A DNA stretch of 64,000 nucleotides from Clostridiales bacterium (lineage in GTDB: Bacteria > Bacillota > Clostridia > Saccharofermentanales > Saccharofermentanaceae), in assembly GCA_017509205.1 (NCBI GenBank), contig JAFWQF010000080.1, forward strand, positions 21,136 to 85,135, in the 5' to 3' direction. Below, piece after piece: positions 45,060-59,772 of the stretch; position 1 is the first letter of the stretch; each line of letters opens with the position of its first letter. Under the pieces are notes generated by a model. It did no database searches and was not told the origin of the DNA. It saw only the letters and a program-made list of their open reading frames with translations. The translations under genes were made by a program, and so were the position numbers.

Positions 45060-45122
45060 ATGATGCCTCGTGTTCTATAATTTATGCGTGTATTTTACCC
45101 TAAAAAGAGAGGCGCACCAACA

Positions 45123-45980
45123 GTGGCAAAACTGCTCGTGACAGTATCAGGCGGAACGGTCTCATCGTCAGTCAGAGACGGTCTTGTAATGCTCGAAAAT
45201 GAGTCTCCTGCAGCTTCCTATCTTAAGAAAAAGGCGGCGGAGATAGAATTCATAGCGCCCGCGAACTACTCATCCGAAAACGCGCGACCCGAGGATTACA
45301 GAGACGTTCTCAAGGCCGTGTCGGAGGCTGCCTCAAAGAGCCGTCCTGACGGCATCCTGATCCTTCACGGAACCGATACTATGGCATATTTTGCACAGCT
45401 TGCGGTAAGGGCTCTGAGCCACATGGGTATCCCTTTCGTGATCACGGGCTCGAAGATCCCGCCTGACAGCGAAGGAACGGATGCTTTCAAGAACATAGAT
45501 TATGCCGTGGAGCAGGTCACCGGAGGCAGCAGCGGTGTTGTCTTTACGACGCACGACGGCATTCAGACGATAATTCCTGCAGGCAAGGTCACGTCTCCTG
45601 ATATCTACGGGGATTACGGCATCTGGCCTGACAGCGCTGATACTGATTTTGCTTCTGACAAGTACAAAGAGGCGGCAGAAGCGTTTTTCGCCGCTGAAAA
45701 GCTCCACAGGATACAGGTCATACCGGCCGCGCCAACGCCCGGAATCCTCGATGAAGGATTCGACACGGTGCTCATCACCTGCCACCATTCGGGAACCGCT
45801 GACGTCAAGCTCGTTCCCAAGGTCAGGAAATGGCACGCAAAGGGCATCAGGTGTTTCATGGCCCCGGTTCCCAGGAATTCAAACATCTACGAAAGCCGCG
45901 CAATGCTCGAGGCGGCAGGATGCATCGCCCTGCCCGGAATGCCTCCCGAAGGCGCGTGGGCGCAGGCTCTCATCACATGA
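45123..45980 (+). CDS. L-asparaginase type I family protein
   Basis: Start moved to GTG 45123; SGGTV, HGTDTMAY, TGSKIP. Confidence 0.8.
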   Translation: MAKLLVTVSGGTVSSSVRDGLVMLENESPAASYLKKKAAEIEFIAPANYSSENARPEDYRDVLKAVSEAASKSRPDGILILHGTDTMAYFAQLAVRALSHMGIPFVITGSKIPPDSEGTDAFKNIDYAVEQVTGGSSGVVFTTHDGIQTIIPAGKVTSPDIYGDYGIWPDSADTDFASDKYKEAAEAFFAAEKLHRIQVIPAAPTPGILDEGFDTVLITCHHSGTADVKLVPKVRKWHAKGIRCFMAPVPRNSNIYESRAMLEAAGCIALPGMPPEGAWAQALIT

Positions 45981-46588
45981 ACAAAGGCCGCTGCCTTGAA
46001 AATCCCCCTTCGATAGACGGAAGTTTCGGCGGAAGCCAGATGTGGGTTTCCGAAAAGCTCATGCAGGAATGCGGCTGCGGCATCATTGCAGGACTCGATG
46101 CTGTTTTGAGATATGAGGGTCTGGCTGAACTATCCAGGGAAGAATACCTTAAGAGGTTTGACGAGGCGGCCCGCTATATCAGACCGATCGTTCTTTCGCG
46201 CGATCCCGAAAAACCGAAGAGCTTCGGGGTGAGCACGGCGGGCTTTAAAAGAGGCATCAGGAAATATGCTGCTTCACGCGGCCTTGGCATCAGGGTCAAG
46301 GGCTTTATCTTCGATTACGAGAACAAGGTCAGGCATTATCTTTCTTTGGGAGTGCCTGTTGCCGCGCTTATCGCGGCTCCCCTGAAGAACGTCACCCTGG
46401 TCAACTGCAACGGGGCCGGCAGCAGCATAGGTTTTCACTGGGTCACATGCACCGGGATAGACGATAAGCACCTTGAGGTGTCATCCTGGGGCGGAAAGCA
46501 CACGATAGAGCTGACGGATCTCGACAGGGCCTCCGCGGGAGTCAGGTTTTACGCGGTGCTTCCTTTGAAATTGCAAGAAAGTCCCTGA
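45977..46588 (+). CDS. Hypothetical protein, possible papain/C39-like Cys peptidase fold
   Basis: ATGA overlap with the asparaginase stop; GGSQxW...GCGIIA, FHWV and SSWG pattern. Confidence 0.45.
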   Translation: MNKGRCLENPPSIDGSFGGSQMWVSEKLMQECGCGIIAGLDAVLRYEGLAELSREEYLKRFDEAARYIRPIVLSRDPEKPKSFGVSTAGFKRGIRKYAASRGLGIRVKGFIFDYENKVRHYLSLGVPVAALIAAPLKNVTLVNCNGAGSSIGFHWVTCTGIDDKHLEVSSWGGKHTIELTDLDRASAGVRFYAVLPLKLQESP

Positions 46589-46633: not shown

Positions 46634-46879
46634 ATGAATGAGGAAATTGCAGCAAAGATAAAGAAGATGCTCGTTGAGAGACTCAGGATCCCTGAGGATG
46701 AGCTTGAATATGATTCAGAACTCTTCGGAGAGGACATAGGACTTGATTCCATCGATTCCATCGAGATCATCGTAGGTCTCGAGGATCTGTTCGGAGTTGA
46801 CATGTCCGGTTCCGGCAAAGAGAACTTCCAGTCCATCAGGACACTTACCCAGTACGTAGAAGAACATAAAGAGGACTGA
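46634..46879 (+). CDS. Acyl carrier protein, aryl-polyene/type II PKS-like
   Basis: LFGEDIGLDSIDSIE with the phosphopantetheine Ser; RBS GGAGG. Confidence 0.88.
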   Translation: MNEEIAAKIKKMLVERLRIPEDELEYDSELFGEDIGLDSIDSIEIIVGLEDLFGVDMSGSGKENFQSIRTLTQYVEEHKED

Positions 46880-46880
46880 T

Positions 46881-49136
46881 ATGTCTGACAGCATCAAAAG
46901 ATGTGTCGTTACGGGCCTTGGCCTCGTATGCGCGTTAGGTGACGATGCCGCTTCATGTGCGGCATCTGCTTTTTCAGGAAAGAGCGGTATCGAAGACGTT
47001 AAGTCCTTCGGCACCGCAACCTGCTATTCGCACAAGGGAGCTGAAGTGGCTCTCACCGATGAGGAGCTCTGCAGCGAAAAGTACGACAGAACGACTCTGC
47101 TCTGCATAAAGGCGGCAGGCGAAGCCCTCGCTGATTCAGGCCTGGACCTCGAAAAGGAAGACCGCAGGAAGATCGGCGTCATCCTCGGCACCTGCATCGG
47201 CGGCGCAGCAAGCATCGACAAATACTATACGGACAGCTTTGAGGGCAAAGAGACTTGTAAGGATGACATCCTGAGGATGCCTGCTTCCGCCATCGCAAAC
47301 AACGTCGCGGGCCATTTCGGTCTGGACGGCATCACGGCAAACATCGTAAACGCATGTGCTGCAGGCACGATGAGCCTCGCTGGCGCATGTGACATGATCA
47401 GGTCCGGCAAGGCAGACGTCTTTGTCGCCGGTGGCTGCGACAGCTTTTCATCGCTCGCATACGCGGGATTCCATGCGCTTCACGCACTGTCTGAAGACGC
47501 GTGCTCACCCTTTAATCACAGCAACGGCATCACGATCGGCGAAGGCTCGGGCGTTCTCATTATAGAGAGCTACGAGCACGCAGTTGCAAGAGACGCAAAG
47601 ATCTACTGCGACGTTCTTGGTGCAGGCGTAAGCTCTGACGCTTACCACATCACGGCTCCGAGACCTGACGGTGAAGGACAGATGAGCGCGATCAGACGCG
47701 CGGCCTACAACTCGGGTGTTGATCTTTCGGAGATCGATTACATAAACGCACACGGAACGGGCACTTCCAAGAACGATGAGGCGGAATTCCTCTCGCTCAA
47801 GACGCTTTTCGGAAACAGGCCCGAACTGGCAGTAAGCTCCACGAAGTCGATGAACGGACACTGCTTAGGTGCCGCAGGATCGATCGAGGCGGTGCTGACC
47901 ATCGAGGCAATGAAGCGCGGAGAAGTTCCTCCCACGATCGGTTACAGCGCGGAGGACATTGAAGCCCTCAAGGAGAAGTCCGGCGGGATCGGTTTCGTCG
48001 CAAACGAAAAGCAGGCAAAAGAGCTTAATGTCTGCATGTCTAACTCTTTCGCGTTCGGAGGCAACAACGCGAGCATCGTTTTCTCTAAGGAGCCGCGTGA
48101 TGTAAAGGGCATCAGCAATACCGCCCCGATCTACATCACCGGTGTCGGCAAGGTTACGGGCACAAAAGATGAAGGAGCTTCAGATTACAGGGCCGACGTA
48201 AGCCCCGAAGTATTCAAAAAGCATGAGGTAAAGTCCGCGTTCCTCAGAAAGCTCGACAGGTTCAGCGACCTTGTCCTCCTGAGCGGAATAGAGGCACTTT
48301 CTGATGCAGGCATAAAAGTAGATGACACCAATGCTGACGATATCGGAATCGTCATCGGAACTTCAGACGGCCCCATCACGGAGATCGTCAATTTCCAGAA
48401 GCTCGTCATCGAGAAGGGAATCGAGAACGGAAGCGCGTTTATGTTCCCCAACACCGTATATAACGCGGCAGGCGGATACCTCTCGATCTTCACGGGCATC
48501 AGGGGCTACAACATAACGATTGCAAACGGTTTCCAGGCGGGTCTTCAGAGCGTCATGTACGCATGTGATGCGATCCGCAGGGGAGACGAGAACATAATGC
48601 TCGCAACAGGCGCAGACGAGCTGACCGATATCGAGCATGATCTCTATGAGAACGCGGGATATCTGGGAGACGGCGTAGTGCTTGGCGAAGGCGCAGTCAC
48701 GCTGATCCTTGAGTCCGCAGAAAGCGCTGCTAAACGCGGAAGCAAGAAGTATGCGCAGATAGCAGGTTATGCCACGGCAAGACATTCCGTTCCTTACGGG
48801 ATCGCAGGCGGAACCGGCGAAGCACTCGTCAGGGCCATTGAAGAGGCGATCGCCGATGCGGGCATTTCAGCAGAAGACATTTCCGTGCTCTACGGATTCG
48901 CGAACGGTCTCAAGCCGCTCGATGACATCCTCGGAGATGCTGTTTCGAAGATCTGGAAGAACGGCATTGAGATAAGGAACGTCAGGGAAGATTCCGGCGA
49001 GGCAAGGGCGGCTTCAGCAGCTCTTTCACTTGCTCGCGCGGCAGAAGACATGAAAGATTCCGGAAGTGAATACATGATGGCGGTAAGCTTCGGCGCAGGC
49101 GGAATCTATTCCGCGGCAGTCCTCAAGAAAGCATAA
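46881..49136 (+). CDS. Fused ketosynthase + non-catalytic KS-like (chain-length-factor-like) protein
   Basis: Domain 1: NACAAG, NAHGTGT, GHCLGAAG, FAFGGNNA. Domain 2: KS-like fold (LRKLDRFS, FPNTVYNAAGG) lacking the Cys/His/His triad. Confidence 0.85.
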   Translation: MSDSIKRCVVTGLGLVCALGDDAASCAASAFSGKSGIEDVKSFGTATCYSHKGAEVALTDEELCSEKYDRTTLLCIKAAGEALADSGLDLEKEDRRKIGVILGTCIGGAASIDKYYTDSFEGKETCKDDILRMPASAIANNVAGHFGLDGITANIVNACAAGTMSLAGACDMIRSGKADVFVAGGCDSFSSLAYAGFHALHALSEDACSPFNHSNGITIGEGSGVLIIESYEHAVARDAKIYCDVLGAGVSSDAYHITAPRPDGEGQMSAIRRAAYNSGVDLSEIDYINAHGTGTSKNDEAEFLSLKTLFGNRPELAVSSTKSMNGHCLGAAGSIEAVLTIEAMKRGEVPPTIGYSAEDIEALKEKSGGIGFVANEKQAKELNVCMSNSFAFGGNNASIVFSKEPRDVKGISNTAPIYITGVGKVTGTKDEGASDYRADVSPEVFKKHEVKSAFLRKLDRFSDLVLLSGIEALSDAGIKVDDTNADDIGIVIGTSDGPITEIVNFQKLVIEKGIENGSAFMFPNTVYNAAGGYLSIFTGIRGYNITIANGFQAGLQSVMYACDAIRRGDENIMLATGADELTDIEHDLYENAGYLGDGVVLGEGAVTLILESAESAAKRGSKKYAQIAGYATARHSVPYGIAGGTGEALVRAIEEAIADAGISAEDISVLYGFANGLKPLDDILGDAVSKIWKNGIEIRNVREDSGEARAASAALSLARAAEDMKDSGSEYMMAVSFGAGGIYSAAVLKKA

Positions 49137-49150
49137 ACGGAGAGACAAAG

Positions 49151-49885
49151 ATGGGTAAGACGGCACTGGTAACGGGCGCTTCACGCGGCATCGGCAAAGC
49201 GATCGCCTTAAGACTCGCAAAAGACGGCTACGACATAGCGGTCAACTACAACAGCAATCAGGAAGCGGCGGAAAAGACCGCTGAAGAGATAGCAGGACTC
49301 GGCGTCACGGCAAAGATCTACAAGGCCGACACATCGAAGATCGATGAGGTCAAGGCGATGTTCAAGGAGATCAGGAAGGATTTCGGCGGTCTTGATGTTC
49401 TCGTAAACAACGCGGGCGTTGTAGATGACGCTTATCTTCTTATGGTCAATCAGGCTTCGCTCGAAAAGAGTCTCGCGATCAACATCCAGGGTTACATCAA
49501 CTGCGCCCAGCAGGCGGCACTTCGCATGGCGGGAGCCGGAAAAGGAGTTATCATCAATGTCTCATCGGTAAGCTCTGTTATCGCGGTAGAGGGTCAGACC
49601 GTTTACAGCGCCACCAAGGGTGCCGTAAACTCCATGACCGCAACGATGGCCAAGGAGCTCGCTCCGCGCGGGATCCGCGTAAATGCGGTCGCTCCGGGAT
49701 TCATCGGAACGGACATGCTCAAGTCCATCCCTGAAGACCTCGCGGAAAAATACATCGAATCGATCCCCATGAAGAAGTTTGGAACGGCTGAGGACGTTGC
49801 AAATGTCGTCTCAAGCCTTTGCTCGGACGGTTTCTCATACATGACAGGCCAGGTCCTGATCCTTGACGGAGGACTGTCGCTCTGA
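49151..49885 (+). CDS. FabG-like ketoreductase (SDR), second copy
   Basis: TGASRGIG, NNAG, YSATK, NAVAPG. Confidence 0.9.
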   Translation: MGKTALVTGASRGIGKAIALRLAKDGYDIAVNYNSNQEAAEKTAEEIAGLGVTAKIYKADTSKIDEVKAMFKEIRKDFGGLDVLVNNAGVVDDAYLLMVNQASLEKSLAINIQGYINCAQQAALRMAGAGKGVIINVSSVSSVIAVEGQTVYSATKGAVNSMTATMAKELAPRGIRVNAVAPGFIGTDMLKSIPEDLAEKYIESIPMKKFGTAEDVANVVSSLCSDGFSYMTGQVLILDGGLSL

Positions 49886-49896
49886 CAGATACTTTA

Positions 49897-50625
49897 ATGA
49901 AGATACTTATATTAAACGGCAGCCCCAAATGTGACAGAAGCAACACGATAAGGATTGCGAACGCTTTTACCGAAGGATTCCCCGAAGGAACCGAAGTAAA
50001 GAAGATCGATCTTTACGAAAAGGACATCAGGCCCTGCAAAGGGTGCTTTTCGTGCTGGAAGAGCAAGGAGGGCACATGTGTCATAAAGGACGACATGCCT
50101 GAGATCATCGCCGCCATCAGGGAAGCTGACATAATTATCGAGAGCTATCCGCTCTATTTCTACGGAATGCCTTCGCAGATGAAGGCCATGACCGACAGAT
50201 GCCTTCAGCTCGTAATGCCTTACATGGGCGACAAGAGCGAGTCTGAGACCACTTTCAACGAAATGCGCGATCCGGAGATGCGCGAAAAGAAGATGGTCCT
50301 CATCAGCTCATGCGGCTATGTAGAGACAGAGCCCGTCTATCCCGCGCTCCTTGCGCAGTACGACCTGATCTGCGGAAAGGGCAACTACACCGCGATCCTC
50401 TGCCCCGAGGGCGAGATCTTCGTTACCGGCAAGGCAAAGCGCCAGCAGGACGTTTACCTTGAGAGCATCAGGGCGGCAGGCGCTGAATACGCGGCAAACT
50501 TCTGCCTTTCAGACGAGACGCTCCGCAAGATCGCGATCCCGATGCTGTCGCCTTTGAGCTTCAGCACGATCACCAAGGCTCACTGGAAAGACGGCCACTG
50601 GACCGAGAGGGATCTCGAGATCTGA
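49897..50625 (+). CDS. Flavodoxin-fold NAD(P)H:FMN reductase / iron-sulfur flavoprotein-like
   Basis: ILNGSPK, PCKGCFSCW...C..KDD, YPLYFYG. Confidence 0.82.
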   Translation: MKILILNGSPKCDRSNTIRIANAFTEGFPEGTEVKKIDLYEKDIRPCKGCFSCWKSKEGTCVIKDDMPEIIAAIREADIIIESYPLYFYGMPSQMKAMTDRCLQLVMPYMGDKSESETTFNEMRDPEMREKKMVLISSCGYVETEPVYPALLAQYDLICGKGNYTAILCPEGEIFVTGKAKRQQDVYLESIRAAGAEYAANFCLSDETLRKIAIPMLSPLSFSTITKAHWKDGHWTERDLEI

Positions 50626-50780: not shown

Positions 50781-50841
50781 TTGACATTATTCTTTATCAC
50801 GGATATACTTTGACAATCAAACTATTGGTTTGTCAAAGTAT
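50781..50841 (+). promoter_or_regulatory. fab operon sigma-A promoter with a FabT-like operator
   Basis: TTGACA-17-TATACT (50781-50809); TTTGA-caa-TCAAA at 50809-21, inside a 12-bp perfect inverted repeat ATACTTTGACAA...TTGTCAAAGTAT. Confidence 0.75.
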
Positions 50842-50861: not shown

Positions 50862-51836
50862 ATGACCGGAAAAATTATCGGTTTAGGTTCATACCTGCCC
50901 GCCAAGGTTTTATCCAATGACGATCTTTCCAAGATCGTTGAGACGAACGACGAGTGGATCACCGAGAGAACGGGAATCAAGGAGAGAAGGATATCAGATC
51001 CTCTGACCGACAAGCCCTCTCAGATGGTAGTCAAAGCAGCCCGTCAGGCTGTAGAAGACGCCGGGATCGACCCGAAAGACATCGATCTCATCATTACCGC
51101 AACGACAACGTCGGATCTCATGTTCCCGACGCTTTCATGCGTTATCCACAAGGAACTCGGCGTAAGCGAGGAGTGCGGAACGTTCGATGTTAACTCCGCA
51201 TGCCCCGGCTGGATCGCCGCATATAACGCTGCCCAGGGCTTTATTCAGACCTGCAATGCAAAGCTCGCTCTCATTGCGGGAGTTGAATGCACATCCAACT
51301 TCGTAAACTGGGAAGACAGAGGCCAGTGCATCCTTTTCGGTGACGGCGCAGGTGCTGCCGTCTTAAGGGCTGAGGAAGGCAAGCCGAACCAGTTCATCAT
51401 GAGATCATCCGGCAGGAGAATGAACTTCCTGCACTGCGACAACGCAAGACAGCCCGCACGTATGAACGAGGAAGGTTTTGAGGACCTCACCAAGTTCAAC
51501 ATGGACGGCCGCGAGGTATTCAAGTTTGCGATTACGGAAGTCCCGAAGATCATCAGGGACCTTTCCGCTAAATATGAATTTGCGCTTGAAGATATTGACT
51601 GGTTCGTTCTGCATCAGGCGAACGCAAGGATCATCGAGGCAACTGCCAAGAAGCTCAAAGTGAGCCTGGATAAGTTCCCGATGAACATCATGCATACGGG
51701 AAACACATCTTCCGCGAGCATTCCGGTGCTTCTCAAGGAGATGAAGGACAAGGGACAGCTCGAAAGAGGCATGAAGATCGTTTTTGCGAGCTTCGGAGGC
51801 GGCCTCACTTGGGATGCCAACTATATTGAATACTGA
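50862..51836 (+). CDS. fabH: 3-oxoacyl-ACP synthase III
   Basis: FDVNSAC, LFGDGAGA, HQAN, GNTSSAS. Confidence 0.95.
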   Translation: MTGKIIGLGSYLPAKVLSNDDLSKIVETNDEWITERTGIKERRISDPLTDKPSQMVVKAARQAVEDAGIDPKDIDLIITATTTSDLMFPTLSCVIHKELGVSEECGTFDVNSACPGWIAAYNAAQGFIQTCNAKLALIAGVECTSNFVNWEDRGQCILFGDGAGAAVLRAEEGKPNQFIMRSSGRRMNFLHCDNARQPARMNEEGFEDLTKFNMDGREVFKFAITEVPKIIRDLSAKYEFALEDIDWFVLHQANARIIEATAKKLKVSLDKFPMNIMHTGNTSSASIPVLLKEMKDKGQLERGMKIVFASFGGGLTWDANYIEY

Positions 51837-51857
51837 TCTTGGCAAAGGAGATTGATC

Positions 51858-52790
51858 ATGACCAGAATTACGGATCTTATCGGAATCAAGTACCCCATCT
51901 TCCAGGGCGGAATGGCATGGGTCGCAGACTGGCATATCGCTGCAGCAGTTTCTGAAGCAGGTGGACTCGGCATCATCGGTGTCGGCGGCGCTGACGAGAA
52001 CTGGCTCCGCGAACAGATCAAGTTATGCCGTGAGGCTACTAACAAGCCGTTCGGCGTAAACCTCATGCTCATGAATCCCAGAGCACCCGAGATTGCAAAG
52101 GTAATCGCAGAGGAGAAGGTTAAGGTCGTTACGACCGGCGCAGGTTCTCCGGAAAAATACATGGAGATGTGGAAGGAAGCAGGAATTATCGTCGTTCCCG
52201 TTACTGCAGGCGTTGCTCTTGCAAAGAGAATGGAGCAGTGCGGTGCTGACGCCGTGATCGCTGAGGGCACAGAGTCCGGCGGACACATCGGCGAAGCTAC
52301 GACGATGACACTCGTTCCCCAGGTAGTTGACGCTGTTTCCATCCCCGTCATAGCAGCAGGCGGTATCGCAGACGGCAGAGGCGTTGCAGCGGCATTTATG
52401 CTCGGTGCTGAAGGCGTTCAGTGCGGTACCGTTTTCTGCGCATGTGATGAGGTCAACGTTCACCCGAACTACAAGGACATGGTCGTCAGGGCAAAGGACA
52501 ACTCCACAAGAGTTACGGGCAGATCCTACGGTCATCCCGTAAGACAGATCAGAAACGCTCTTTCCAACAAGTATCTTGAGATGGAGCAGAGCGGCGTAAC
52601 CTTCGAAGAACTCGAGGGACTCACGGTAGGAAGTCTCCGCAAGGCAGTCGTTGAAGGCGACACCAAGCAGGGCACTTTCATGGCAGGACAGATCGCAGGT
52701 CTCATTAAGGAGGTCAGACCTGCAAAGGTCATCATCGAATCAATGTTCGAAGAGGCTGACAAACTCCTTGGAAGGAAGATTGAAGCATAA
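51858..52790 (+). CDS. fabK: Enoyl-ACP reductase FabK
   Basis: PIFQGGMAW, EGTESGGHIG, AAGGIADGRG, MAGQIAG; start moved to ATG 51858. Confidence 0.93.
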   Translation: MTRITDLIGIKYPIFQGGMAWVADWHIAAAVSEAGGLGIIGVGGADENWLREQIKLCREATNKPFGVNLMLMNPRAPEIAKVIAEEKVKVVTTGAGSPEKYMEMWKEAGIIVVPVTAGVALAKRMEQCGADAVIAEGTESGGHIGEATTMTLVPQVVDAVSIPVIAAGGIADGRGVAAAFMLGAEGVQCGTVFCACDEVNVHPNYKDMVVRAKDNSTRVTGRSYGHPVRQIRNALSNKYLEMEQSGVTFEELEGLTVGSLRKAVVEGDTKQGTFMAGQIAGLIKEVRPAKVIIESMFEEADKLLGRKIEA

Positions 52791-53707
52791 TGAAGATCGC
52801 ATTTTGTTATCCGGGACAGGGTGTCCAGCAGGTAGGAATGGCCGAGGCTTTCGTAAAGTCTGACGCACGTTACCAGGAGATGGTCGACGCTGCTTCAAAG
52901 GCTTCAGGCATCGACATGAACAAGCTCCTTTTCGAACCCAACGAAGACATCAACATCACTGAAAATACGCAGCCCGCGCTTGTTACCGCATGCTGCATCA
53001 TCACAGAAGCTCTTCTTAAGGCAGGCGTTAAGCCTGAAGTCACAGCAGGTCTTTCACTCGGTGAATACTGCAGCCTTTATGTTGCAGGCGCCCTGAACTT
53101 TGAGGATGCCGTAAGGCTCACGAGGATCAGGGGAAGGCTAATGTCTTCAGAGGTTCCCGCAGGCGAAGGCTCCATGGCTGCGATCATCGGTCTTAAGCAG
53201 GAAGAAGTTGAGAGCGTTACCAACACGATCGAAAACGTATGGCCCGCAAACTTCAACTGCCCCGGACAGATCGTCATCACGGGCAAGAAGGAAGCCGTAA
53301 GAGAGGCTATGCCCAAGCTCGAGGAAGCAGGCGCAGTCAAGGTTGTTGAACTCAACGTTTCAGGACCTTTCCATTCACCTCTTCTCAAGGGAGCAGGCGA
53401 AAAGCTCGGCAAGGAACTTGAAAACGTTGAACTCGGCGATCTTAAGATCCCTTATTTCGCAAACGCAAATGCTTCGAAGATCACAGACAAAGCTCAGATC
53501 AAGGATCTTCTCAAGGAGCAGGTATATAGCCCCGTTAAGTGGGAGCAGACCCTTTACGAGCTCGAAAAGATGGGTGTTGACACCATCGTTGAAGTAGGCC
53601 CCGGAAGGACCATCGCAGGCTTTGTCAGAAAGACTGTCCCTTCGATAAAAGTAATCGGTGTTTCAACACCTGAAGACATAGAGAAATTACTCGAGAAAAT
53701 CGGCTGA
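52790..53707 (+). CDS. fabD: Malonyl-CoA:ACP transacylase
   Basis: PGQG, TQPA, GLSLGEY, SGPFHS. Confidence 0.95.
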   Translation: MKIAFCYPGQGVQQVGMAEAFVKSDARYQEMVDAASKASGIDMNKLLFEPNEDINITENTQPALVTACCIITEALLKAGVKPEVTAGLSLGEYCSLYVAGALNFEDAVRLTRIRGRLMSSEVPAGEGSMAAIIGLKQEEVESVTNTIENVWPANFNCPGQIVITGKKEAVREAMPKLEEAGAVKVVELNVSGPFHSPLLKGAGEKLGKELENVELGDLKIPYFANANASKITDKAQIKDLLKEQVYSPVKWEQTLYELEKMGVDTIVEVGPGRTIAGFVRKTVPSIKVIGVSTPEDIEKLLEKIG

Positions 53708-53722
53708 TACAGGAGGAAAACC

Positions 53723-54469
53723 ATGTCAGAGAATATTAGAAAAACAGCAATCGTAACAGGTGCTTCAAGAGGTATCGGCAAGGCCATCGCCCTGAAGCTC
53801 GCAAAGAGCGGATACAACATCGCGATCGTTGACGCATGCCCTCTCGAAAACAGCAAGGCTGCTGAAGACGAGGTAAAGGCACTTGGCGTTGACGCAAAGG
53901 CATATCAGTGCAACGTTGCTGATTTCGCTGCAGTTGAAGAGACTGTTAAGCAGATCAATGACGATTTCGGCGGCATCTACATCCTCGTAAACAACGCCGG
54001 CATCACAAGAGACGGACTCCTCATCAAGATGAGCGAGGAGAACTTCGACGCGGTCATCAACGTTAACCTCAAGGGTACGTTCAACTTCATCAAGCACGTT
54101 ACGCCCATCATGATGAAGAAGAGAGAAGGAAGAGTCGTAAGCATTTCTTCCATCGTAGGCATCGAGGGCCAGGCAGGACAGGTCAACTACTCCGCTTCAA
54201 AGGCAGGCGTCATCGGCATCACAAAGTCATGCGCAAGAGAGTTCGCTTCAAGGAACATCACCTTCAACGCGATCGCTCCCGGATATGTTGAGACACCCAT
54301 GACTGCCGTTCTTACGGACAAGCAGAAGGAAGCCATCTTCGAGATGATCCCTCTCAAGAGATACGGACAGCCTGAGGATATCGCTAACGCAGTTAATTTC
54401 CTGTGCTCTGATGATGCTTCATACATCACGGGTCAGGTCCTTTCCGTTGACGGCGGAATGCACATGTAA
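53723..54469 (+). CDS. fabG: 3-oxoacyl-ACP reductase
   Basis: TGASRGIG, NNAGITRD, GQVNYSASKAG. Confidence 0.95.
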   Translation: MSENIRKTAIVTGASRGIGKAIALKLAKSGYNIAIVDACPLENSKAAEDEVKALGVDAKAYQCNVADFAAVEETVKQINDDFGGIYILVNNAGITRDGLLIKMSEENFDAVINVNLKGTFNFIKHVTPIMMKKREGRVVSISSIVGIEGQAGQVNYSASKAGVIGITKSCAREFASRNITFNAIAPGYVETPMTAVLTDKQKEAIFEMIPLKRYGQPEDIANAVNFLCSDDASYITGQVLSVDGGMHM

Positions 54470-54487
54470 TCAAGGGAGAAAAAGCAA

Positions 54488-55717
54488 ATGGCAAACAGAG
54501 TCGTAATAACCGGAATGGGTGCTATCACACCTCTCGGAAACAACGTTGAGACTTTCTGGGAAGGTCTTAAAAAGGGAAAGGCAGCCACCGGCCCGATCAC
54601 AAAGTACGATACGAGCAATTCCAAGATCAAGCTCGCATGCGAAGTCAAGGATTTCAATCCCCAGGACTACATGGATTTCAAGACGATGAAGCGTATGGAG
54701 CCGTTTGCCCATTTCGCTGTCGCTGCCGCAAAGGAAGCAATCGAGCAGTCCGGAATCAACATGGAGAATGAGGATCCTTACAGAGTAGGCGTTATCGTAA
54801 GCTCCGGAATCGGATCACTCCAGGCTCACGAAAGAGAGCAGGTAAGATACGAGAAGTCAGGAAAGATCGCTCCTATGTACATCCCGATGATGATCGCCAA
54901 CATGGCATCTGCAAACATCGCCATCATGTACGGAATGAAGGGCATCAATACCTGCGTCGTTACAGCATGCGCAACAGGCGCTCACTCCATCGGTGACGCT
55001 TTCAAGGCTGTTAAGTACGGCGATGCTGACATCATGGTTACCGGCGGATGCGAAGCTTCCGTCTGCAAGACAGGTGTTCAGGGATTTGCAGCTCTCACGG
55101 CTCTTTCCACAAACGAGGATCCCGAGACTGCTTCAAGACCGTTCGACAAGAACCGTGACGGTTTCGTCATCGGCGAAGGTTCAGGCGTTCTCGTTCTCGA
55201 GAACTATGACCACGCAGTTGCAAGAGGCGCAAACATCTTAGCTGAGCTCGTAGGCTACGGCGCAACATGCGACGCATACCACATCACATCACCCGCAGAG
55301 GACGGATCCGGTGCAGGCGAAGCAATGATCATCGCAATGAAGGAAGCAGGCATCAAGCCTTCCGACATCGATTACATCAACGCTCACGGAACATCAACAC
55401 ACCACAACGACCTTTTCGAGACACGTGCCATGAAGTACGCGTTCAAGGAAGACATCAAGAACATCTCGATCAACTCCACAAAGTCCATGATCGGCCACGT
55501 ATTGGGCGGTGCAGGCGGAGTTGAGCTCATCACATGCGTAAAGGCTATCCAGGACGGATTTGTTCACGTTACAGCAGGCTCCAAGGAGAGCGAGGGTGAG
55601 ATGGATCTCGACTACACATTCTTCGAACCCAAGAACCGCGACATCACTTACGCAATGACAAACAACCTGGGATTCGGCGGACACAACGCTTCCCTGATCG
55701 TAAAGAAGTTCGTATAA
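54488..55717 (+). CDS. fabF: 3-oxoacyl-ACP synthase II
   Basis: TACATG, NAHGTST, KSMIGH, GFGGHNA. Confidence 0.95.
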   Translation: MANRVVITGMGAITPLGNNVETFWEGLKKGKAATGPITKYDTSNSKIKLACEVKDFNPQDYMDFKTMKRMEPFAHFAVAAAKEAIEQSGINMENEDPYRVGVIVSSGIGSLQAHEREQVRYEKSGKIAPMYIPMMIANMASANIAIMYGMKGINTCVVTACATGAHSIGDAFKAVKYGDADIMVTGGCEASVCKTGVQGFAALTALSTNEDPETASRPFDKNRDGFVIGEGSGVLVLENYDHAVARGANILAELVGYGATCDAYHITSPAEDGSGAGEAMIIAMKEAGIKPSDIDYINAHGTSTHHNDLFETRAMKYAFKEDIKNISINSTKSMIGHVLGGAGGVELITCVKAIQDGFVHVTAGSKESEGEMDLDYTFFEPKNRDITYAMTNNLGFGGHNASLIVKKFV

Positions 55718-55735
55718 GTCGGGGAGGTCAATTCA

Positions 55736-56239
55736 ATGGCAGATAAGAACACCCGCACGGGCCTTACGCTTGAAGAGATGACAGCCCTCATCAAGGCGGT
55801 TTCTGAGTCAAACATCGACAGCTTTGATTACAAGGAAGGCGAGTTCTCGATCACCCTTCACACGGGCAGGAGCGGAATCCTGACTTCTGCTGCAAACGCA
55901 GCAAGCGCAGGCGCTTTCACCGGCGTATCGATGGCTGAGCTCAACAAGGCAATGTCACTTGCAGCTGATGCAACGAGCGGCGCAGACAGTGAAGAAGACG
56001 ATGACGCTTTCATCATCAAGTCACCCCTCGTAGGTACTTTCTATGCCGCACCCGCAGCTGACGCAAAGCCTTTCGTAAAGATCGGCGACCGCGTAAAGAA
56101 GGGACAGGTCCTCGCCATCGTTGAAGCAATGAAGATGATGAACGAGATCGAATCCGACTGCGACGGCACGATTTCTGAGATAATGGTTACAAACGGTTCG
56201 CCTGTTGAATACGGACAGCCGCTTTTCAGAATAAGCTAA
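55736..56239 (+). CDS. accB: Biotin carboxyl carrier protein
   Basis: [17 protein letters not shown]. Confidence 0.95.
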
Positions 56240-56257
56240 TACAAAGGAGAACCAGTC

Positions 56258-56707
56258 ATGGCAAATTCACTCGACACAATCGGAATCATGAAGATCATTC
56301 CGCACAGGCATCCTTTCCTCCTCATCGACAAGGTTGAGGACTACGTACCCGGCGAGTATGCCATCGCTTATAAGAATTTCACATACGATGAGTATTTCTT
56401 CAGAGGACACTTCCCTGAATATCCCATCGTTCCGGGCGTCCTCACCGTTGAGGCTCTTGCACAGTGCGGTGCAGTCTGCATCCTCGCTCAGGAGGAATTC
56501 AAGGGCAGGATCGCTCTTTTCGCAGGCGTAGACAAATGCAAGTTCAAGGGTTCCATCGTTCCCGGCGACCAGGTAAGACTTGAGACAAGGATCACCGCAA
56601 TGAAGAACACATTCGGCATCGGTGAGGCAGTCGCAACAGTCAACGGAAACGTTGTCGTAAAGGCTACCCTCAAGTTCGCGATCCTTCCCAAGGGCGCTGA
56701 GATCTAA
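56258..56707 (+). CDS. fabZ: 3-hydroxyacyl-ACP dehydratase
   Basis: PHRHPFLLID, GHFP...PGVLTVEALAQ. Confidence 0.95.
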   Translation: MANSLDTIGIMKIIPHRHPFLLIDKVEDYVPGEYAIAYKNFTYDEYFFRGHFPEYPIVPGVLTVEALAQCGAVCILAQEEFKGRIALFAGVDKCKFKGSIVPGDQVRLETRITAMKNTFGIGEAVATVNGNVVVKATLKFAILPKGAEI

Positions 56708-56715
56708 GGCATCTT

Positions 56716-58059
56716 ATGATAAAGAAAGTCCTGATAGCCAACAGGGGCGAGATTGCGGTCCGCATCATCAGAGCGTGCCGCGAGATGGGCATCGAGACAG
56801 TCGCGGTATGTTCCGAGGCTGACAGAAATGCCCTTCATGCAATGCTTGCGGATCAGACGATCTGCATCGGTCCCGCACCTTCATCAGAGAGCTATCTGAA
56901 TATCGGCCGCATCATAAGCGCCACGATGACATCGGGCGCTGACGCAATACATCCGGGCTTCGGATTCCTTTCCGAGGACTCAAGGTTCGCAAGGATCTGC
57001 GAGCGCTGCAACATCACGTTCATCGGTCCCTCTTCTGAAATGATTGCAGCTTCGGGCAACAAGGCCCAGGCAAAGAAGACCATGATCGACGCAGGCGTTC
57101 CTACGATTCCCGGAAGCGCTGAAGCAGCACAGACAGTCGAAGACGGATTGAGGCTCGCGGACATCGCGACATATCCCGTCATGATCAAGGCAGCTTTGGG
57201 CGGCGGCGGAAAAGGCATGCGTGTCGCAAGGTCGAAAGACGTTTTCACGCAGGCTTTCCAGACCGCGCAGCAGGAGGCGAAGAATGCCTTCGGCGACGGC
57301 TCTATGTATATCGAGCACTACGTCGAACACCCCAAGCACATCGAGGTTCAGATCCTCGCTGACAAGTTCGGCAACGTCGTTCACTTGGGCGAGCGTGACT
57401 GCTCGATCCAGAGAAACCACCAGAAGCTTGTTGAGGAAACACCCTGCGAATCCCTTTCAGAAGAGAAGCGCAAGGCTATCTGCGAAGCTGCAGTTAAGGC
57501 TGCAAAGGCAGTAAATTACGAGAACGCGGGAACCGTTGAGTTTCTCCTGGAGCCCTCCGGAAATTTCTATTTCATGGAGATGAACACGAGGATCCAGGTA
57601 GAGCACCCGATCACCGAATGGGTAACGGGAATCGACCTCATCAAAGAGCAGATAAAGATCGCATCAGGCGAGCCTTTAGGCTTCACGCAGGATGACGTTA
57701 AGATCAAGGGCCACTCCATCGAAGTGCGCATCAATGCCGAAGACGCAGAGCACAAGTTCAGACCGTGCCCCGGCAAGATCGAGCTTGCATACCTTCCGGG
57801 CGGTCAGGGAGTCAGGATCGATTCCGCGGTCTACAGCGGCCTTGAGATCCCTCCGTTCTACGATTCAATGCTCGCAAAGCTCTCAGTATGGGCACCCACA
57901 CGTGAAGAGGCCATCAAGAAGGCACAGTCGGCTTTGGGCGAAGTGATCCTGACAGGCATCAAGACCAACATCGACTATCAGTACGGGATCATCACGAGCC
58001 CCGAATTTATTGCCGGAAACACGGACATTGACTTCATCGAAAAGTTCTCTAGAAAATAA
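56716..58059 (+). CDS. accC: Biotin carboxylase
   Basis: ANRGEIA, GGGGKGMR, RDCSIQR, EMNTRIQVEH. Confidence 0.96.
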   Translation: MIKKVLIANRGEIAVRIIRACREMGIETVAVCSEADRNALHAMLADQTICIGPAPSSESYLNIGRIISATMTSGADAIHPGFGFLSEDSRFARICERCNITFIGPSSEMIAASGNKAQAKKTMIDAGVPTIPGSAEAAQTVEDGLRLADIATYPVMIKAALGGGGKGMRVARSKDVFTQAFQTAQQEAKNAFGDGSMYIEHYVEHPKHIEVQILADKFGNVVHLGERDCSIQRNHQKLVEETPCESLSEEKRKAICEAAVKAAKAVNYENAGTVEFLLEPSGNFYFMEMNTRIQVEHPITEWVTGIDLIKEQIKIASGEPLGFTQDDVKIKGHSIEVRINAEDAEHKFRPCPGKIELAYLPGGQGVRIDSAVYSGLEIPPFYDSMLAKLSVWAPTREEAIKKAQSALGEVILTGIKTNIDYQYGIITSPEFIAGNTDIDFIEKFSRK

Positions 58060-58077
58060 CACCGGGGTAACTCAGGT

Positions 58078-59772
58078 ATGGAATTAAGATATTTATTCAA
58101 GAAGACGCAGTCTGCCTCGGGTCCTGAAACCCCGAGAAATGAGGAAAACGCTCCCCAGACACCGCAGGGCCTTTTTCACAAGTGCGCCAAATGCGGTGAG
58201 ACGATCTTCTCCGAAGAACTCAAAAGAAACCTTTTCGTATGCCCGCAGTGCGGCGGTTATTTCCGCATGTATGCAGGAACGAGGATAGACAACATCCTTG
58301 ATGACGGTTCGTTCGAGGAATGGGACAGCGACATCAAAGAACTTAATCCTTTGGGTACTCCCGGTTACGAAGACAAGCTAGAAAGACTCCGCGACAAGAC
58401 ATCACTCGATGAGGCTGTCGTAACGGGAAAGGGCCTCGTAAACGGCCATCCCGCATGCCTCGGCGTAATGGACTGCCGCTTCATGATGGCTTCCATGGGA
58501 AGCGTCGTAGGCGAGAAGATCACCAGGATGTTCGAGCGCGCAACCGAAGAAAAGCTGCCCGTCATCATCTTCACCGCATCGGGCGGAGCGAGGATGCAGG
58601 AAGGCATCGTGTCACTCATGCAGATGGCCAAGACGTCAGCTGCGATCAAGAAGCATTCCGATGCGGGACTTCTTTATGTTACGGTCCTGACAGATCCCAC
58701 CACGGGCGGCGTTACCGCGAGCTTTGCGATGCTCGGCGACATCATCCTTGCAGAACCCGGTGCTCTCATCGGTTTCGCAGGCCCCAGGGTCATCGAGCAG
58801 ACAATAGGACAGAAGCTCCCTGAGGGTTTCCAGCGTTCAGAATTCCTGTTAGAGCACGGCTTTGTTGACGACATAGTCACAAGGACCGACATGAAGGATT
58901 ATCTTACTGACATTTTGAAGTTCCACGAGAACAAGGGTGCCTTCAAGGCTGAAAAGAGCGAAAAGATCAAGCTCCCGAAGTCTTCAGGAAAGCTTACCCC
59001 CTGGGACAAGGTCATGATCTCAAGAGGCAAGGACAGACCCGTTGCCGAAGACTACATCAGAGAGCTTTTCCCTGATTTCACCGAATTCCACGGCGACAGG
59101 TTCGTGAAGGACGACAAGGCCGTAATGGGCGGCATCGCCACATTCGCGGGCAGGGCTGTCACGGTCATCGCCGAGTCAAAAGGCCACGATACAAAAGAGA
59201 ACATCGAGCGCAATTTCGGCATGCCGTCACCTGACGGTTACCGCAAGGCGCTGCGTCTCATGAAGCAGGCCGAGAAGTTCGGCCGCCCAGTCATCTGCTT
59301 TGTTGACACTCCGGGCGCATACTGCGGACTCGAGGCAGAGGAAAGAGGTCAGGGCGAGGCGATCGCGAGAAACCTTTACGAGATGAGTTCTCTCAAGGTT
59401 CCCGTTCTTTCGATCATAATCAGCGAGGCAGGCTCAGGCGGAGCACTGGCAGTCGCGGTATCAGACGAGGTCTGGATGCTCGAGAACGCGATCTACGCGA
59501 TCCTTTCACCCGAAGGCTACGCAAGCATCCTCTGGAAGGATTCCAAGCGTGCTTCGGAGGCTGCCGCCGAGATGAAGCTGACCGCAAAGGACATGAAGGA
59601 TAACCGCATTATCGAAAAGATCATTGCGGAGCCCGAGAATCTTTGCAAAGATAATATAGATGTCGTTGTTGCACAGCTCCGGGACGGAATATCCGGTTTC
59701 ATCGGAAGCAACATCGACTTTGACGGAGAGGAACTCACGAAAAAGAGGTACGACAGATACCGGAGTTACTGA
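58078..59772 (+). CDS. accDA: Fused acetyl-CoA carboxyltransferase beta-alpha (AccD-AccA)
   Basis: Zinc finger CAKC...CPQC, SGGARMQEG, GFAGPRVIEQT, then FVDTPGAYCG, GSGGALA. Confidence 0.93.
   Translation: MELRYLFKKTQSASGPETPRNEENAPQTPQGLFHKCAKCGETIFSEELKRNLFVCPQCGGYFRMYAGTRIDNILDDGSFEEWDSDIKELNPLGTPGYEDKLERLRDKTSLDEAVVTGKGLVNGHPACLGVMDCRFMMASMGSVVGEKITRMFERATEEKLPVIIFTASGGARMQEGIVSLMQMAKTSAAIKKHSDAGLLYVTVLTDPTTGGVTASFAMLGDIILAEPGALIGFAGPRVIEQTIGQKLPEGFQRSEFLLEHGFVDDIVTRTDMKDYLTDILKFHENKGAFKAEKSEKIKLPKSSGKLTPWDKVMISRGKDRPVAEDYIRELFPDFTEFHGDRFVKDDKAVMGGIATFAGRAVTVIAESKGHDTKENIERNFGMPSPDGYRKALRLMKQAEKFGRPVICFVDTPGAYCGLEAEERGQGEAIARNLYEMSSLKVPVLSIIISEAGSGGALAVAVSDEVWMLENAIYAILSPEGYASILWKDSKRASEAAAEMKLTAKDMKDNRIIEKIIAEPENLCKDNIDVVVAQLRDGISGFIGSNIDFDGEELTKKRYDRYRSY

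Follow-up and report, generated by a model that had tools for sequence, protein, structure and literature searches.

The window analysed in this study is a stretch of 64,000 nucleotides from a Clostridiales bacterium of the family Saccharofermentanaceae (GenBank assembly GCA_017509205.1, contig JAFWQF010000080.1, positions 21,136 to 85,135 of the forward strand), and its subject is a block of four genes at positions 46634-50625, counted from the first letter of the window. The block lies directly upstream of fabH, the first gene of a housekeeping type II fatty acid synthase (FAS) operon, with an intervening gap of 236 bp. All four genes are on the + strand and are separated by only 1, 14 and 11 bp. 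The first (46634..46879) encodes a dedicated acyl carrier protein (ACP) of 81 aa; its ATG follows a GGAGG, the product matched PF00550 at 41 bits, and the serine lies in LDSIDS. The second is an open reading frame of 751 aa (46881-49136) that encodes a fusion of two ketosynthase (KS) domains, KS–KS'. Domain 1 occupies residues 1-405 (46881..48095), and domain 2, which resembles a chain length factor (CLF), occupies residues ~417-751 (48129..49136). The third gene (49151..49885) encodes a FabG-like 3-ketoacyl-ACP reductase (KR) of 244 aa, a short-chain dehydrogenase/reductase with a YSATK motif; it scored 254 bits against TIGR01830, under the cut-off of 298, and was 41% identical to the housekeeping FabG of the window. 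The last gene (49897..50625) encodes a flavodoxin-like flavin mononucleotide (FMN) protein of 242 aa, a candidate ene/enoyl reductase, which matched FMN_red (PF03358) and Flavodoxin_2 (PF02525).

A first-pass annotation of the sequence had described an ACP, a 751-aa double KS, a second FabG and a flavoprotein with a cysteine motif in tight array, and all four genes are indeed present with gaps of 1-14 bp. It had also held that the cluster has no dehydratase, ligase or transferase of its own. In agreement, scans with Pfam and NCBIfam profiles found no dehydratase (DH), ligase, phosphopantetheinyl transferase (PPTase) or acyltransferase in the four-gene block. The likeness of the ACP to aryl-polyene ACPs could not be confirmed, as its best matches were generic ACP models, all below their cut-offs.

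Domain 1 of the fusion carries the features of an active KS. It scored 468.2 bits against the FabF model TIGR03150, which does not reach the equivalog cut-off of 493.75, and was 34% identical to the window's own FabF. With a score below the cut-off, a second domain, and a separate true FabF at 54488-55717, the fusion is not a canonical FabF. The Cys-His-His triad claimed for domain 1 is present as C159, H291 and H327, together with K322, and the triad and the lysine are kept in 108-109 of 110 divergent fused relatives in the alignment. In a three-way alignment with FabF, F551 of domain 2 falls at the Cys position, F673 and E707 replace the two histidines, and R702 takes the place of the lysine. 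F551, F673 and E707 fall within TIANGF, LYGFANG and SGEARAA, the very segments from which the absence of a triad had been deduced earlier. Over the 110 fused relatives the triad-equivalent sites of domain 2 vary, and Cys is not among the common residues. We also considered a conserved CLF-type Gln and rejected it: the NGFQAG of domain 2 puts a Gln one residue past the Cys-equivalent position, and only 25 of the 110 family members have a Gln at or beside that position. Domain 2 is a genuine but shortened KS fold, matching PF00109 with an E-value of 1e-19 and solved FabF structures in the PDB with 3e-28.

An AlphaFold2 model of the fusion, built on a 27-sequence alignment, had a pLDDT of 87 and a pTM of 0.91. 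The best whole-chain Foldseek match to this model was the KS-CLF didomain of PfaC (6RIW; E 4e-46, query-normalised TM 0.80), whereas single FabF chains covered half of it (TMq about 0.50). Because the whole chain is matched by PfaC and only half of it by FabF, the two halves are predicted to pack as a KS/CLF pseudo-dimer, and the predicted contact is a thiolase-type dimer interface. By sequence, the best PDB matches were chains B and C of 9S5H, with 292 bits for domain 1 (its best match) and 93 bits for domain 2 (among its best). Among solved structures, domain 1 scored 264-292 bits against FabF and 186 bits against the polyene KS Iga11 (6KXD). Matches to TIGR02813 and TIGR02814 were weak and partial, and the fusion ends after the CLF domain at 751 aa. 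A domain with the triad, a triad-less partner of KS fold and, in the model, the pairing of the two make up a KS/CLF-type pair. Judged from sequence and predicted structure, the 751-aa protein is a single-chain KS/CLF-type pseudo-heterodimer of an active-type FabF-like KS and a catalytically dead KS-fold partner. The covalent KS-CLF pair put forward in the first-pass annotation is thus borne out by the predicted intramolecular dimer, in which domain 2 has the KS fold and the packing is that of the PfaC didomain.

We asked how widespread this architecture is with a profile-free search of domain 2 alone against 1.84 billion cluster representatives (50% identity). The search gave 11,157 matches, and about 105 of the best 150 were proteins of 730-870 aa in which the match lay in the C-terminal half. 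A word-indexed search with the whole protein, which took the 8,000 best candidates, gave 7,251 matches; the 120 listed were all at least 58% identical, and Saccharofermentans, Oscillospiraceae and Butyrivibrio sp. AE2032 were named among them. Back-translated patterns of the whole protein, run against genome contigs, hit mostly ordinary FabF, with a single true fusion (locus L015). A tblastn search of domain 2 against plasmids returned E. eligens, Priestia and Bacillus; L. reuteri was not among the matches listed. The same uninterrupted fusion recurs in 13 genus-mates of the sample and in about 105 of the divergent cluster representatives, which excludes chance or an assembly artefact as its source and settles a doubt raised when the locus was first annotated.

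The four genes are one conserved unit under purifying selection, both KS halves included. The dN/dS ratios (nonsynonymous to synonymous substitution rates) between the window and two genus-mates were 0.00-0.03 for the ACP, 0.09-0.12 for the whole fusion, about 0.05 for the KR and 0.08-0.11 for the flavoprotein. When the fusion was divided, KS domain 1 gave 0.06-0.10 and the dead domain 2 gave 0.11-0.13. The housekeeping FabF and FabG gave comparable values (0.03-0.11). The reading frames of the block were intact in all 13 sampled genus-mates.

Fuller versions of the block occur elsewhere. In eight unrelated neighbourhoods outside the genus, we found a cassette of a PlsC-type acyltransferase, an ACP, the fusion, a KR, a DH of the FabZ/ApeI fold and the flavoprotein, and an Sfp-type PPTase is present in five of the eight. 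The cassette DH matched the ApeI-like and FabA models of Pfam; it scored as a plain FabZ (NF000582, 118 bits), and its FabA matches were weak. Most of the relatives are stand-alone cassettes, far from any fab operon and with their own acyltransferase. Recurring neighbours downstream of full cassettes (L116:5659-7181, L138:7706-9191, L139:7721-9269; L117:13234-14904, L118:12857-14551, L140:8047-9714) are either a divergent TetR gene with a patatin-like phospholipase gene or a convergent AMP-binding ligase gene. These neighbours hint at lipid remodelling, with a lyso-lipid as acceptor, or at the loading of a starter acid.

Two further versions differ in their gene content. An operon on the megaplasmid of E. 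eligens (locus L110; NC_012780.1, record positions 223399-231141, on a 627-kb replicon) encodes an ACP, the fusion, a KR, FabZ, FabD, AccD, AccA, a flavodoxin-family protein and PlsX. Within this operon there is no gene for fabH, FabK, FabI or any other known enoyl reductase (ER), and it may be a good test case for the cassette as the only FAS of a cell. The other version, which we call cyl-like, was found on a Priestia plasmid and in genome G474. It comprises FabD, FabG, an ACP, FabZ and a fusion of about 805 aa (809 and 804 aa), and the Priestia locus has a GcvT-like gene in addition. The flavoprotein was absent from both of these cyl-like loci.

In a maximum-likelihood tree of the fused proteins, the blocks of the genus were monophyletic (100/100) and nested in the clade of acyltransferase-containing cassettes, as sister to L116 (99/98). 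The E. eligens type branched next, and the cyl-like type was the outgroup. Given this nested position, the window block is, as far as the tree and gene content tell, a reduced derivative of a mobile 6-7-gene cassette of gut and rumen Clostridia, rather than the minimal cluster it had been called. The acyltransferase, DH and PPTase were by the same comparison lost after the block had settled beside the fab operon, and the loss of the cassette's DH and acyltransferase provides an evolutionary basis for borrowing FabZ and FabD. Literature searches found no characterised version of the cassette. We also looked at the celluxanthene system as a possible relative and discarded it, since it is a type I iterative polyketide synthase (PKS) and is unrelated.

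The flavoprotein was present in every locus of this clade that we examined. Its cysteines C47-x2-C50-x2-C53-x7-C61, and three further ones, were invariant in 8/8 orthologues. The CX2CX2CX7C spacing is compatible with the compact CX2CX2CX4-7C motif that binds a [4Fe-4S] cluster in Isf-type iron-sulfur flavoproteins. A homologue search gave 364 proteins at E <= 1e-10, the 120 listed being at least 55% identical, and all three contexts sampled from this list were the cassette. Among solved structures, the best relative by sequence was 7D38 (E 2e-6, 30 bits), with a match over N-terminal residues 1-140 that includes the cysteine stretch. The structure belongs to FLR, a flavone reductase from Flavonifractor plautii; this FMN ene-reductase hydrogenates carbonyl-conjugated C=C bonds in a reversible reaction (PMC7862272). 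As judged from gene content, the flavoprotein is the component that sets this clade apart from the polyene-type cyl-like clusters.

Within the genus of the window, the distribution of the block is patchy. With domain 2 as query, 13 of the 39 species sampled from the genus proved to have the fusion; the sampled genomes of other genera of the order had none, and of 400 further genomes sampled across the phylum one had it. The neighbourhood was the same in 13/13 of these genus-mates. On the upstream side were genes for a DUF4236 protein, a GGDEF-EAL protein, a phosphatase-family protein, an asparaginase-like protein and a 203-aa Cys/His protein; then came the ACP, fusion, KR and flavoprotein, followed by fabH and the remaining FAS/ACC operon (ACC, acetyl-CoA carboxylase). 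In three genus-mates without the block (G153, G053 and G636), fabH comes immediately after the asparaginase-like and Cys/His pair. Because these three have the same locus without the block, the four genes are an exact unit of presence and absence, and this unit coincides with the span delimited in the first-pass annotation. In G153 (locus L134, contig C2), the spacer between the Cys/His gene and fabH is 468 bp, of which about 370 bp are AT-rich with repeated CGTATGTAC-containing units. No remnants of the block genes were found in G153, which fits gain of the block at the G153 node as well as loss. Across 61 genomes of the genus, the 203-aa Cys/His protein was found in 33 and the flavoprotein in 27.

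The asparaginase-like and Cys/His pair (45084..46588, + strand) stands next to the block in the window, and we considered its genes as tailoring or off-loading genes. This was ruled out, as the pair is kept where the block is missing. The asparaginase-N-like protein (45084-45980) is 298 aa long, and its gene overlaps that of the 203-aa protein (45977-46588) by ATGA. The latter protein has a GCG...HW Cys/His pattern and a weak Peptidase_C39_2 match (E 0.04). Throughout the genus the pair precedes the fab operon, whether the block is present or not, and it evolves fast, with 37-48% identity where FabK has about 95%.

On the downstream side, the housekeeping FAS/ACC operon, complete and of the clostridial type, extends over 50862..59772 on the + strand and was assigned from Pfam and NCBIfam matches; it is the presumed source of FabD, FabZ and malonyl-CoA for the block. 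It consists of fabH (50862-51836), fabK (51852-52790), fabD (52790-53707), fabG (53723-54469), fabF (54488-55717), accB (55736-56239), fabZ (56258-56707), accC (56716-58059) and accDA (58078-59772). FabK (TIGR03151), FabD (TIGR00128) and FabG (TIGR01830) exceeded the equivalog cut-offs. AccD and AccA are encoded as a single 564-aa fusion, with zinc ribbon, Carboxyl_trans and ACCA domains. A promoter-like TTGACA-17-TATACT (50781..50809, + strand) precedes fabH; it agrees with the consensus at 11/12 positions and is a consensus match only. The stretch with this site is kept in G153, with 84% identity over 219 bp running into fabH. The operon has no acpP. The housekeeping AcpP, which shares 29% identity with the ACP of the block, is encoded on another contig, within pgsA-acpP-rnc-smc. 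Two further small ACPs are encoded in the same genome (C16:49733 and C72:15822, loci L004 and L007). One is flanked by genes for a MarR-type regulator and a 326-aa diacylglycerol-kinase-like protein, and the other has a 422-aa acyltransferase and a DegV-like protein as its neighbours. They have the look of additional dedicated lipid modules.

Given these findings, we tentatively favour, stopping somewhat short of calling it probable, the reading that the block is the core of a private FAS-like synthase of reduced acyl chains, which works on its own ACP and has the flavoprotein as its ene-reductase. The dedicated ACP would be converted to the holo form by a PPTase of the host and then malonylated by the neighbouring FabD. 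The KS-CLF would prime itself by decarboxylation of malonyl-ACP, in the way of KS/CLF pairs and of the anammox amxFabF heterodimer, and would then elongate the chain, with the dead domain 2 shaping the acyl tunnel and so setting the chain length. The dedicated KR would reduce the 3-keto group. Dehydration would fall to the housekeeping FabZ, since the cassette's own DH is lost from the window block. The Isf/FLR-like flavoprotein, with FMN and probably a [4Fe-4S] cluster, would then reduce the enoyl double bond, possibly with low-potential electrons. The expected product is an acyl chain of defined length, largely saturated, that would end up in a membrane lipid; it would have been installed by the PlsC-type acyltransferase of the ancestral cassette, and here it would be handed to acyltransferases of the host. 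The borrowing of FabD, FabZ and ACC from the adjacent operon, which had been suggested before, is the simplest reading of a block that has no DH, acyltransferase or PPTase of its own and whose nearest relatives carry them.

Several points weigh against such a synthase, which is a predicted function. FabK, FabG and FabF are already encoded in the adjacent operon, so that the need for a second reducing core is not evident, and the window block has no off-loading enzyme. The match of the flavoprotein to FLR is weak (30 bits) and confined to the N-terminal 140 residues. Foldseek on a model of the flavoprotein (pLDDT 74) returned generic azoreductases and quinone reductases at a TM of about 0.54, which did not discriminate between functions, and no FLR chain was among the 50 matches listed. 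Finally, a flavodoxin-fold enoyl-ACP reductase is not known. We regard as doubtful the stronger proposal that the flavoprotein, a flavodoxin-fold protein with FMN and [4Fe-4S] that is possibly linked to ferredoxin, represents a new class of enoyl-ACP reductase. Together with a single-chain KS-CLF that would replace FabH and FabF, it would constitute an alternative type II FAS of anaerobic Clostridia, which in the window would stand beside the canonical FabH, FabF and FabK.

The earlier suggestion of a polyene leads to a different reading, which we consider unlikely: a highly reducing type II PKS in which the KS-CLF, the KR and a borrowed FabZ iterate without enoyl reduction to yield a polyene lipid or pigment, while the flavoprotein has a tailoring or protective redox role. 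The kinship of the parts is in keeping with it. The fused KS is homologous to the ~800-aa KS of cyl-like clusters (32-35% identity over about 90% of the length), the polyene-type clusters of L. reuteri have long KS proteins of 798 and 688 aa (PMC6498181), the granadaene pathway as proposed uses a KS, a KR and a DH and no ER (PMC6985545), and the cassette DH matches ApeI-like as well as FabA models. Three observations make us prefer the FAS-like synthase over a polyene. The flavoprotein accompanies the fusion in every examined locus of this clade, whereas the cyl-like relatives lack it. In E. eligens, the operon links the fusion to PlsX, FabD and ACC in the manner of a primary FAS and includes no other ER. 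And the nearest characterised homologue of the flavoprotein is an ene-reductase. In addition, the scores against solved structures put domain 1 nearer to FabF than to Iga11, and no starter-unit ligase, glycosyltransferase, exporter or amino-acid-conjugating enzyme was found in the window around the block. There is no specific sign of a polyene; in every locus examined, this clade carries a flavoprotein whose closest solved relative by sequence is an ene-reductase.

The position of the block directly upstream of fabH, on the other hand, would suit a module for FabH-independent initiation, or a booster, in which the KS-CLF makes acetyl- or short acyl-ACP and feeds straight-chain primers to the neighbouring FAS without any new product. 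The amxFabF heterodimer, the best PDB match by sequence, initiates by decarboxylation of malonyl-ACP and prefers short chains, and the E. eligens-type operons have no fabH. Primer supply alone, though, needs no dedicated ACP, KR or flavoprotein, most relatives stand far from fab operons with their own acyltransferase, and the block is dispensable in close genus-mates; we judge this role to be distinctly unlikely. Quite improbable, in our estimate, is an anaerobic route to an unsaturated or otherwise modified fatty acid, in which the flavoprotein would be a dehydrogenase/isomerase or a selective ER, after the logic of FabX or of polyunsaturated fatty acid (PUFA) synthases, and the product a special mono- or polyunsaturated chain. 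FabX is an FMN and [4Fe-4S] enzyme, which speaks for such a route, as does the reversibility of the FLR reaction. The KS-CLF, KR, FabA/FabZ-fold DH, flavin protein, Sfp-type PPTase and PlsC-type acyltransferase run parallel to the domains of PUFA synthases, and the KS-CLF of PfaC is the best structural match. The fold of the flavoprotein, however, is unrelated to the TIM barrels of FabX, FabK and PfaD, and the cassette DH scores as a plain FabZ with weak FabA matches. The block might, lastly, be a decaying and functionless remnant of the cassette, having lost the acyltransferase, DH and PPTase of its relatives and being missing from about half of the genus-mates. The intact reading frames in 13/13 sampled genus-mates, the retained catalytic residues, dN/dS ratios of 0.00-0.12 and the tight operon-like spacing make decay highly improbable.

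If the FAS-like synthase is correct, gut and rumen Clostridia would possess a compact, transferable module for lipid building that departs from the textbook type II FAS at two steps, namely priming and elongation by a covalent KS-CLF and the last reduction by an Isf/FLR-like flavoprotein. The window block would be this module stripped to four indispensable genes, and what it makes may be a defined membrane lipid of organisms abundant in gut and rumen. A new class of enoyl reductase would bear on the use of FabI/FabK inhibitors and on the balance of reducing power in anaerobes. For engineering, the CLF-type domain would be a natural means of controlling chain length through a single gene. The genus supplies natural controls in its block-positive and block-negative members, and Butyrivibrio sp. 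AE2032 is a cultured, block-positive relative.

Among the known systems, FLR (7D38-7D3B) has a flavodoxin-like FMN domain with the same N-terminal cysteine-rich stretch and comes from gut Clostridia (PMC7862272), but its substrate-binding C-terminal tail is not conserved in the flavoprotein of the block, for which enoyl-ACP is the proposed substrate. The cyl/granadaene and the L. reuteri fun/pks clusters are likewise Gram-positive, FAS-like type II clusters with an ACP, a FabG-like KR and a FabZ-like DH. FunB (798 aa) and PksB (688 aa) of L. reuteri are annotated as ketosynthases of polyene-type clusters, and the gene tables of L. reuteri list no flavoprotein (PMC6498181); their likeness to the fusion is one of published length and annotation only. 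The cyl-like loci differ from the block by an added GcvT-like gene, the absence of a flavoprotein and an outgroup position in the KS tree. The published cyl operon further has CylE, ABC and glycosyltransferase genes, none of which are in the window. Around the block there is no CylE-type N-acyltransferase, no CylF (GcvT-like), no ABC exporter and no glycosyltransferase, and the block does not belong to the cyl/granadaene class.

The PKSs of the Ape/ishigamide type resemble the block in using a KS with a non-catalytic CLF, a KR and DHs of the FabZ/ApeI fold, and in iterating on a discrete ACP. They differ in having separate KS and CLF proteins, starter-unit enzymes, a second KS, two ACPs and export genes, and their hosts are Gram-negative bacteria or actinomycetes. 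The block has only its ACP, fused KS, KR and flavoprotein, with no separate ApeO/ApeC, no ApeR and no ApeI/ApeP. Separate KS and CLF subunits are the rule in the aryl-polyene and ishigamide systems, as had been noted for this locus from the start. The subunits are separate, too, in the amxFabF2/amxFabFmut heterodimer from the anammox ladderane Cluster I (9S5H/9S5I), a KS/CLF-like pair that decarboxylates malonyl-ACP (bioRxiv 10.64898/2026.05.19.726425). Like the fusion, it joins an active KS derived from FabF with a dead partner derived from FabF in a setting closer to fatty acid synthesis than to aromatic PKSs. It is encoded by two genes, with the dead partner upstream, in a different phylum and among radical-SAM neighbours, and a flavoprotein is not reported there.

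The closest structural counterpart is PfaC (6RIW), for which the PUFA-synthase literature uses the term KS-CLF didomain. In both proteins, a single polypeptide holds an active KS followed by a triad-less CLF, and the two pack as a pseudo-dimer. The match has only 18% identity, and PfaC is part of a megasynthase with downstream DH domains, whereas the fusion of the window stands alone as a 751-aa enzyme in a type II system of dissociated proteins, with a discrete ACP, KR and flavoprotein. In the PUFA synthases (Pfa), the KS-CLF is embedded in a multidomain PfaC with tandem FabA-like DHs, alongside PfaA, PfaB and PfaD; the fusion ends after its CLF domain and has discrete type II genes as neighbours, which sets it apart from them. 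The single-chain KS-CLF, which the first-pass annotation had treated as unusual, is not new: it has precedents in PfaC and in the fused KS of 809 and 804 aa of the two cyl-like clusters, and possibly in FunB and PksB with their similar lengths.

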